Source: Eledone cirrhosa (lineage: Eukaryota). Taken from it: DNA of 64,000 bases. The stretch is from positions 18,414,001 to 18,478,000 of the forward strand of contig OZ024762.1 in the NCBI GenBank assembly GCA_964016885.1, in the 5' to 3' direction. Of this stretch, positions 46,969-47,407 are shown piece after piece. The notes beneath the pieces are model-generated. The model worked only from the letters and a program-made list of their open reading frames with translations. It searched no databases and was not told the DNA's origin. Every line of letters starts with the position of its first letter. The first letter of the stretch is position 1. A program made the translations under genes and the position numbers.

Positions 46969-47407
46969 CCTCTCCCAGCCTCAAGATTTAGAAGATCATT
47001 CAATCTACCTCGAATATCAAGGCAATCTAGTCTGGCACCGCAAGATTTCTGTGAAGACATTATGTCCAACCGAGATTGGCAATGATACTCATACTTGTGG
47101 CTATTTTTTCGCCTCGACCCCGTTTAAAAGTTCGGAAGAACAACTTCAGATTACGAGGTTTAACATCGCCGATAATTTTAACAATCACTTCTGGAATGTT
47201 AGCAGACAAACTGAATTCCATTCAGTGAGATCACCGTCGACCAGTGATTCCAGCCTAACCAACGTTGCAACAGCTGTTGGTCGCATCAGATTAATAAAAG
47301 ACGAAGAAGGCCATCGTTATTATCACAGCAAAGCTATTAGTTTATCAACAAATATTTATTTAATGGCTGTAGCCTGTTTAACCTTTGTCCTGACTAAACA
47401 AAACTAA
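46969..47407 (+). CDS. Terminal coding exon of the Cys-loop LBD gene (beta5-beta10, Cx10C loop, hydrophobic tail, stop)
   Basis: Acceptor tttttcag|C completes the GG+C codon and is in frame with ORF 47051..47407. Translates LSQPQDLEDHSIYLEYQGNLVWHRKISVKTLCPTEIGNDTHTCGYFFASTPF...FWNV...GRIRLIKDEEGHRYYHSKAISLSTNIYLMAVACLTFVLTKQN*. GxVxW, the Cys pair and the W of beta9 are recognisable. Confidence 0.92.

Follow-up and report, generated by a model that had tools for sequence, protein, structure and literature searches.

Two kinds of Cys-loop protein are known, channels and soluble binding proteins. The window, which is the whole 64-kb stretch of Eledone cirrhosa DNA analysed here, contains a gene that raises the question of whether a further arrangement exists. 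It encodes a putative signal peptide and a whole Cys-loop ligand-binding domain (LBD, PF02931), followed by only 35 residues that include a hydrophobic tail. What this tail does, and what kind of protein it would make, is examined below.

Gene model and its surroundings

The splicing of the Eledone cirrhosa gene was derived from homologues. The spliced gene has four exons on the + strand and gives 274 codons with 0 internal stops; GT...AG ends were found on all three introns (3/3). The exons and the signals behind them are:

18918..18985, + strand: exon 1 (placed by inference), with the ATG and most of the signal peptide, ending at a phase-2 donor GTAAGT
42655..42871, + strand: exon 2, with the end of the signal peptide, the alpha1 helix and LBD strands beta1-beta2 (PF02931, E 5.1e-07)
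45134..45234, + strand: exon 3, with the W..W.P region (loop A) of the LBD (PF02931, E 9.4e-06)
46969..47407, + strand: exon 4, the last coding exon, with beta5-beta10, the Cys loop, the tail and the stop (PF02931, E 0.0018)
47499..47521, + strand: two AATAAA polyadenylation-like signals (starts 47499 and 47516), ~90-110 nt past the stop

Exons 2, 3 and 4 each matched Pfam Neur_chan_LBD (PF02931). Exon 2 has AG/GT boundaries, and the mature N-terminal half is 86% identical to that of the O. vulgaris protein P0006. The junction of exons 3 and 4 is read through in the same frame by P0001 and P0006, and the frame of exon 4 is open to the TAA at 47405-47407. Exon 1 was picked from 32 scan candidates by its match to the N-terminus of P0006 (12/21 identical, E 6e-05), with an in-frame join free of stops; its position is thus a prediction from sequence comparison, and it leaves a first intron of 23,669 nt. 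The hydrophobic stretch spanning exons 1 and 2, which is homologous to the P0006 N-terminus, was taken as a putative N-terminal ER signal peptide.

No second LBD gene was detected in the 64-kb window by tblastn, or by Pfam matching in 84 of its 110 other larger frames; the 26 frames omitted from the Pfam scan include the exons of the gene itself and repeat-derived frames. Several other elements of the window were observed. Directly behind the polyadenylation signals, two tandem units of ~188 nt (47565-47937) are 92-95% identical to each other and are presumably SINE-like. An open frame of 232 codons on the - strand (43937-44635), in the intron 3' of exon 2, had no Pfam match; we take it to resemble the decayed C-terminus of a LINE reverse transcriptase. 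A weak C2H2 zinc-finger match at 8700-9029 on the - strand (E 0.0013) was under the curated cut-off.

The C-terminal tail and its conservation

The sequence-only reading had proposed that the C-terminal tail is a GPI-anchor signal. The peptide that it quoted was found without a mismatch on the + strand, where it runs up to the TAA at 47405-47407, and its placement of the tail after beta10 of the PF02931 domain was borne out, as was that of an S-K-A small-residue site at Ser249 (AGC, 47327-47329) with 25 residues behind it. The stop lies 35 residues past beta10, and the region is laid out as follows:

47273..47299, + strand: beta10, the last LBD strand, homologous to strand E228-236 in the AlphaFold2 model of P0011
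47327..47335, + strand: predicted omega site Ser249, with Lys at omega+1 and Ala at omega+2
47336..47353, + strand: spacer, omega+3 to omega+8, mean hydropathy 0.42
47354..47392, + strand: C-terminal hydrophobic block of 13 aa, from omega+9, best 11-residue hydropathy 2.72

The block is followed by four polar residues and the stop. Its length of 13 aa agreed with the earlier reading, but the remark that this is short for a transmembrane (TM) helix was not clear-cut, as the best 19-residue Kyte-Doolittle window reached 1.87 and the usual TM threshold is 1.6. In the whole protein of 274 aa, only the signal peptide and the tail had 19-residue windows above 1.2; the best values in other tails were 1.5-2.2. 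AlphaFold2 modelled P0011 (mean pLDDT 70) with beta10 at 228-236, then a low-confidence linker (239-249) and a terminal helix (250-266). A poor model resulted when just exon 4 was used (mean pLDDT 52), and it was kept out of the fold search.

By word-indexed searches, a HMMER search and cluster look-ups, 20 relatives were collected, making 21 sequences with the window protein; the range of the family is a lower bound owing to the limited sensitivity of these searches. A hydrophobic C-terminal tail was found in 15 of the 21, namely the window protein, P0001, Argonauta hians P0002 and P0011, the Sepia cluster P0012-P0016, P0003, P0005 of the limpet Patella caerulea, and P0017-P0020, although these 15 tails are not independent and fall into ~7 groups. 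The tails extend 27-55 residues past beta10. In cephalopods only 1-6 residues follow the apolar run (1 residue in the Argonauta tails), indicating that there is no cytosolic domain; in P0017-P0020, 10-12 residues follow the hydrophobic block. Five octopod sequences (P0004, P0007-P0010) are tail-less, ending 2-3 residues past beta10 as measured in P0004 and P0007. P0006 is a truncated model and was counted neither among the tailed nor among the tail-less paralogues.

The tail-less octopod paralogue is present in the O. vulgaris, O. bimaculoides, O. sinensis and Argonauta annotations, and it looks like a secreted AChBP-like protein. The accessions of three Argonauta proteins are consecutive, with contigs of identical length, and those of two O. 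vulgaris proteins nearly so, which suggests that tailed and tail-less genes lie in a tandem cluster. The ORFs of the Sepia cluster (270 aa) are found on Logan contigs of 1.1-1.65 kb, suggesting spliced transcripts that include the tail. Matches in the ESM Atlas were LBD clusters only, with scores <0.9, and serve as leads only.

Irregularities were seen in several database models. The nearest O. vulgaris model to the Eledone cirrhosa gene, P0006 (CAI9740374.1), ends at 158 aa, early in the last exon, and is either a broken copy or the product of an error in annotation or assembly. The N-termini of the P0001, P0008, P0010 and P0005 models are wrong or missing, with an unrelated leader or no signal peptide; the great length of the first intron, 23.7 kb here, is a possible cause, and any GPI pipeline that demands a signal peptide would miss the family as a result. 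The C-terminus of P0020 past the hydrophobic block is unlike that of its cluster mates, as if from a frameshift or assembly error.

In the PredGPI description (PMC2571997), a GPI signal combines an unstructured linker with an omega residue drawn from C/D/G/N/S, small side chains across omega-1 to omega+2, a spacer from omega+3 to omega+9 and a hydrophobic tail from ~omega+10. Measured against this layout, the window protein has small residues at omega and omega+2 but not at omega-1 (His) or omega+1 (Lys), the latter a position where a non-small residue may be tolerated. A home-made layout rule was derived from the same description after the sequences had been seen, and it is a consistency check, not a predictor. 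The rule passed 11 of the 15 tails (P0003 and P0018-P0020 failed) and 0 of the 6 tail-less or truncated sequences. In the window protein, A251 and S253 also passed as alternative omega sites. Among all stop-terminated frames of the window 18/692 passed (15/410 of the complex frames), and after shuffling of the last 45 residues 46/2000 passed for the window protein and 76-242/2000 for six other sequences. A pass by one gene alone is therefore only modest evidence, and conservation in homologues is the stronger argument.

Such conservation was observed at the predicted omega site. The triplet [SN]-K-[AG] stands exactly 9 residues before the block in five of eight tails (window, P0001, P0002, P0011 and Patella P0005). 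The shuffle chance of the triplet at that offset was 0.004-0.009 in each case, with block starts set by eye, and that of a generic omega triplet was 0.10-0.27. S-[KR]-A is present in P0003 and the Sepia cluster, but its distance to the block is just ~5 residues there, implying that omega is elsewhere; the site that passes the rule in the Sepia cluster is S-S-S. Thus the conservation of the omega site that the sequence-only reading had asked to be checked was found in the octopods and Patella at a fixed offset, but not in the Sepia cluster or P0003.

Identity in the tail (12/24, 50%) was close to that in the signal peptide (15/27, 56%), against 115/144 (80%) and 108/126 (86%) in the LBD; versus Argonauta, it was 33% in the tail, 33% in the signal peptide and 55% in the LBD. 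Such values are consistent with a tail that diverges at the rate of a signal peptide, as a discarded signal would. With its conservation from cephalopods to limpet, the spacing of omega and block, this signal-peptide-like divergence and the loss of the FPxD motif described below, the C-terminal tail is probably a GPI-attachment signal; that reading gained ground from the comparisons and stays a predicted one.

The ligand-binding domain and the nature of the tail

Channel features were sought in the domain and behind it. PF02932 (M1-M4) was absent from 10 of 10 family sequences, and no TM family, PF02932 included, was matched by the 35 complex + strand frames of >=45 codons downstream in the 64-kb window. 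The Cys loop is altered as well:

47063..47098, + strand: shortened Cys loop, C-x10-C, without FPxD

The spacing of 10 was found in nine of ten family members (12 in P0007) and FP was missing in 10/10; the Cys loop of nAChR alpha6 has 13 residues with FPFD. The best PDB sequence matches of the domain were nAChR subunits, with alpha6 at E 1.5e-23. When the window protein was aligned with alpha6, the loop D Trp was replaced by Ser, the loop A Tyr by Leu and the loop B Trp by Thr. The beta9-beta10 loop (loop C) had no Tyr, and the vicinal Cys pair (CC) was absent in 10/10. The roles of these loops in acetylcholine binding follow PMC10338036. With the aromatic box and the vicinal Cys lost, the Eledone cirrhosa LBD is unlikely to bind acetylcholine in the usual way. 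In the octopod tailed members, loop C is long and Ser/Thr-rich (47210-47272 in the window; also P0011 and P0002), unlike in the Sepia and tail-less members, and the P0011 model has low pLDDT at 217-222 in this region. This loop could be O-glycosylated or could reshape the pocket.

The fold of the P0011 model was that of a full LBD, with Z of 18.3-18.8 to GABA-A, nAChR, AChBP chimeras and CRT1. When four copies of the P0011 LBD (residues 30-240) were modelled without an alignment, an assembly score of 0.56 was obtained, versus 0.00 for the best control, with contact agreement of at least 69% and pLDDT of at least 71. The mark for assembly was reached by 21/30 solved pairs and 0/23 single chains; it was reached in 7/16 cases from animals and 17/29 from eukaryotes, but in just 1/7 without an older solved relative, so that resemblance to pentamers already solved may account for the P0011 score. 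That the P0011 LBD self-assembles is a prediction with support from a model.

It had also been proposed that the tail is a repurposed M1 helix. The position after beta10 agreed with this proposal: structural matches to pentameric-channel domains ended at P0011 model residues 237-241, and the structural alignment ended at residue 239, equivalent to Torpedo alpha 212, which we take to be where M1 begins. The tail accordingly occupies the place of M1. The resemblance of YY...LTFVL to M1 was rejected as evidence, as the YY/FY pair occurs in only two of eight tails and is not conserved. The wide span of tail lengths, 27 to 55 residues, also speaks against it. The window tail has 0 prolines; nAChR M1 carries one. 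A tail profile of 51 positions, searched against 177,635 PDB sequences at E<=10 in a run without a positive control, returned two unrelated chains and no nAChR M1. An M1 origin of the tail is unsupported by sequence, although the GPI signal itself may be a converted first transmembrane helix.

The explanation that we regard as likely is a pore-less, AChBP-like ring that is tethered by GPI and binds a non-cholinergic ligand. The signal peptide would send the protein into the ER, where GPI transamidase would cut at or near Ser249 and swap the tail for GPI, and the mature protein would then be held on the outer cell surface by its lipid anchor. Subunits, probably five, would join head to tail and form binding sites where they meet. 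On the cell surface, the pore-less ring could capture, buffer or present its target, either a partner protein or a non-cholinergic ligand, and a phospholipase could shed the ring. The tail-less octopod paralogue would be a secreted version of the same protein.

A tail that stays uncleaved would make the protein a single-pass, type I membrane protein with almost no cytosolic part, its LBD tethered by a peptide helix that is perhaps a remnant of M1. The hydropathy of this tail (1.87) and of the others (1.5-2.2) is compatible with such an anchor, as are the 17-18-residue helix at the end of the AlphaFold2 models and the start of the tail at the start of M1 (P0011 model residue 239 ~ Torpedo alpha 212), and SMART labels seven O. 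bimaculoides genes 'LBD-TM' in Table 1 of PMC6896357. Yet the tail diverges as fast as a signal peptide and keeps a small-residue site at a fixed distance from the block; there is no basic cytosolic cluster, the Argonauta tails end 1 residue past the apolar run, and the tail profile matched no M1. We consider this alternative unlikely. It is still less probable that the protein is soluble and AChBP-like, its tail being cut without lipid transfer or only retaining it in the ER, with no role at the surface. Paralogues P0004 and P0007-P0010, which end at beta10, keep the fold without an anchor, and 4/15 tails fail the home-made rule; against this, the hydrophobic tail and the fixed omega spacing are kept from limpet to octopods, which implies selection on the signal.

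A channel subunit that is truncated by a premature stop, or alternatively spliced to M2-M4 exons further downstream, would agree with an LBD nearest in sequence to nAChR subunits, and the downstream search covered frames of >=45 codons inside 64 kb. The design with a stop after the tail is nevertheless common to argonaut, cuttlefish and limpet, and PF02932 was found neither in the ten family sequences nor in the 35 downstream frames. Within the last exon, just one donor-like site was detected, at 47225 and upstream of beta10, and the Cys loop lacks the TM-coupling motif, leaving this explanation very improbable. Three simpler candidates were rejected: a recent nonsense mutation, by the conservation of the tail across molluscs; a chemotactile receptor proper, by the introns, the limpet homologue and the lack of a channel; and a canonical acetylcholine buffer, by the loss of the aromatic box.

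To return to the GPI-tethered ring, its history was approached with a tree built on the LBD alone for 13 of the 21 sequences, without a channel, AChBP or chemotactile receptor outgroup and with long branches meeting in it. The three tail-less rows grouped at 100/100, and Sepia, P0003, Patella and P0017/18 split from the octopod rows at 94/92. If the root is on the limpet side, the tail would be ancestral and would have been lost in the octopod paralogue. The earlier description of the protein as an intermediate between AChBP and a channel holds for its architecture, but not for an evolutionary order, as the tree has no channel or AChBP outgroup. We lean slightly towards an old molluscan family of GPI-anchored Cys-loop rings, from limpet to octopus, with a non-cholinergic pocket, in which octopods have anchored and secreted duplicates. 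The two octopod forms could co-assemble, or act in trans on chemotactile or nicotinic channels.

Literature and comparison with known systems

A GPI-anchored Cys-loop binding domain appears to be so far uncharacterised. No paper on one was found among full-text matches, a coverage outside which most subscription papers fall, and this is in line with the earlier statement that no characterised example was known; judged by titles and the starts of abstracts, the GPI matches on nAChRs concern Ly6/lynx proteins. In the main text of Jiao et al. 2019 (PMC6896357), 'GPI' and 'anchor' are absent and the LBD-TM genes are counted without discussion; neither 'GPI' nor 'AChBP' occurs in the main text of MolluscaGenes (PMC13174522), and in the available part of Albertin 2022 only the sucker cluster is mentioned.

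If the GPI-tethered ring is true, a lipid-anchored, pore-less form would be a third Cys-loop design beside channels and soluble AChBPs, and the 'LBD-TM' genes of molluscs and annelids, which are often taken for fragments, would be real surface receptors or decoys. It would also be a natural case of a channel ectodomain that has switched its mode of attachment to the membrane, in which paralogues with and without an anchor occur next to each other, and would point to a ligand and a role in cephalopod cell-surface chemistry.

Among known systems, the nAChRs share with this family the PF02931 domain, the best PDB matches and a tail located where M1 begins. The family differs from them in having no M1-M4 bundle, no FPxD and no acetylcholine aromatics, and a Cys loop of 10 instead of 13 residues. 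The chemotactile receptors (CRs; CRT1, CRB1) likewise have a divergent nAChR-derived LBD without an acetylcholine site, and the Z to CRT1 (8eis) was 18.4, although CRT1 ranked under many nAChRs in the profile search. TM-less CR isoforms were reportedly seen by van Giesen in 2020. The CRs are nevertheless channels and, according to PMC13174522, intronless, whereas the Eledone cirrhosa gene has three introns and a limpet homologue.

The 'LBD-TM' class of Jiao et al. 2019 resembles the tailed family in combining an LBD with one predicted hydrophobic segment; that paper (PMC6896357) counts 7 such genes in O. bimaculoides, and the other molluscs that it lists have 2-11. Ly6/lynx1 proteins are also GPI-tethered and modulate nAChRs, but this is a functional analogy only, since their three-finger fold is unrelated to the LBD. 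The AChBPs share the restriction to an LBD, the signal peptide and an altered Cys-loop length, which varies among AChBPs and is explained by the absent channel in PMC4569296. The likeness extends to the fold, with a Z of 18.7 between the P0011 model and the alpha7-AChBP chimera 5afh (rmsd 3.0, 198 aligned), and may extend to the predicted self-assembly of the P0011 LBD. In contrast to the AChBPs, which are secreted according to PMC4569296, the tailed family carries a hydrophobic tail of 27-55 residues and has neither vicinal cysteines nor an aromatic box.
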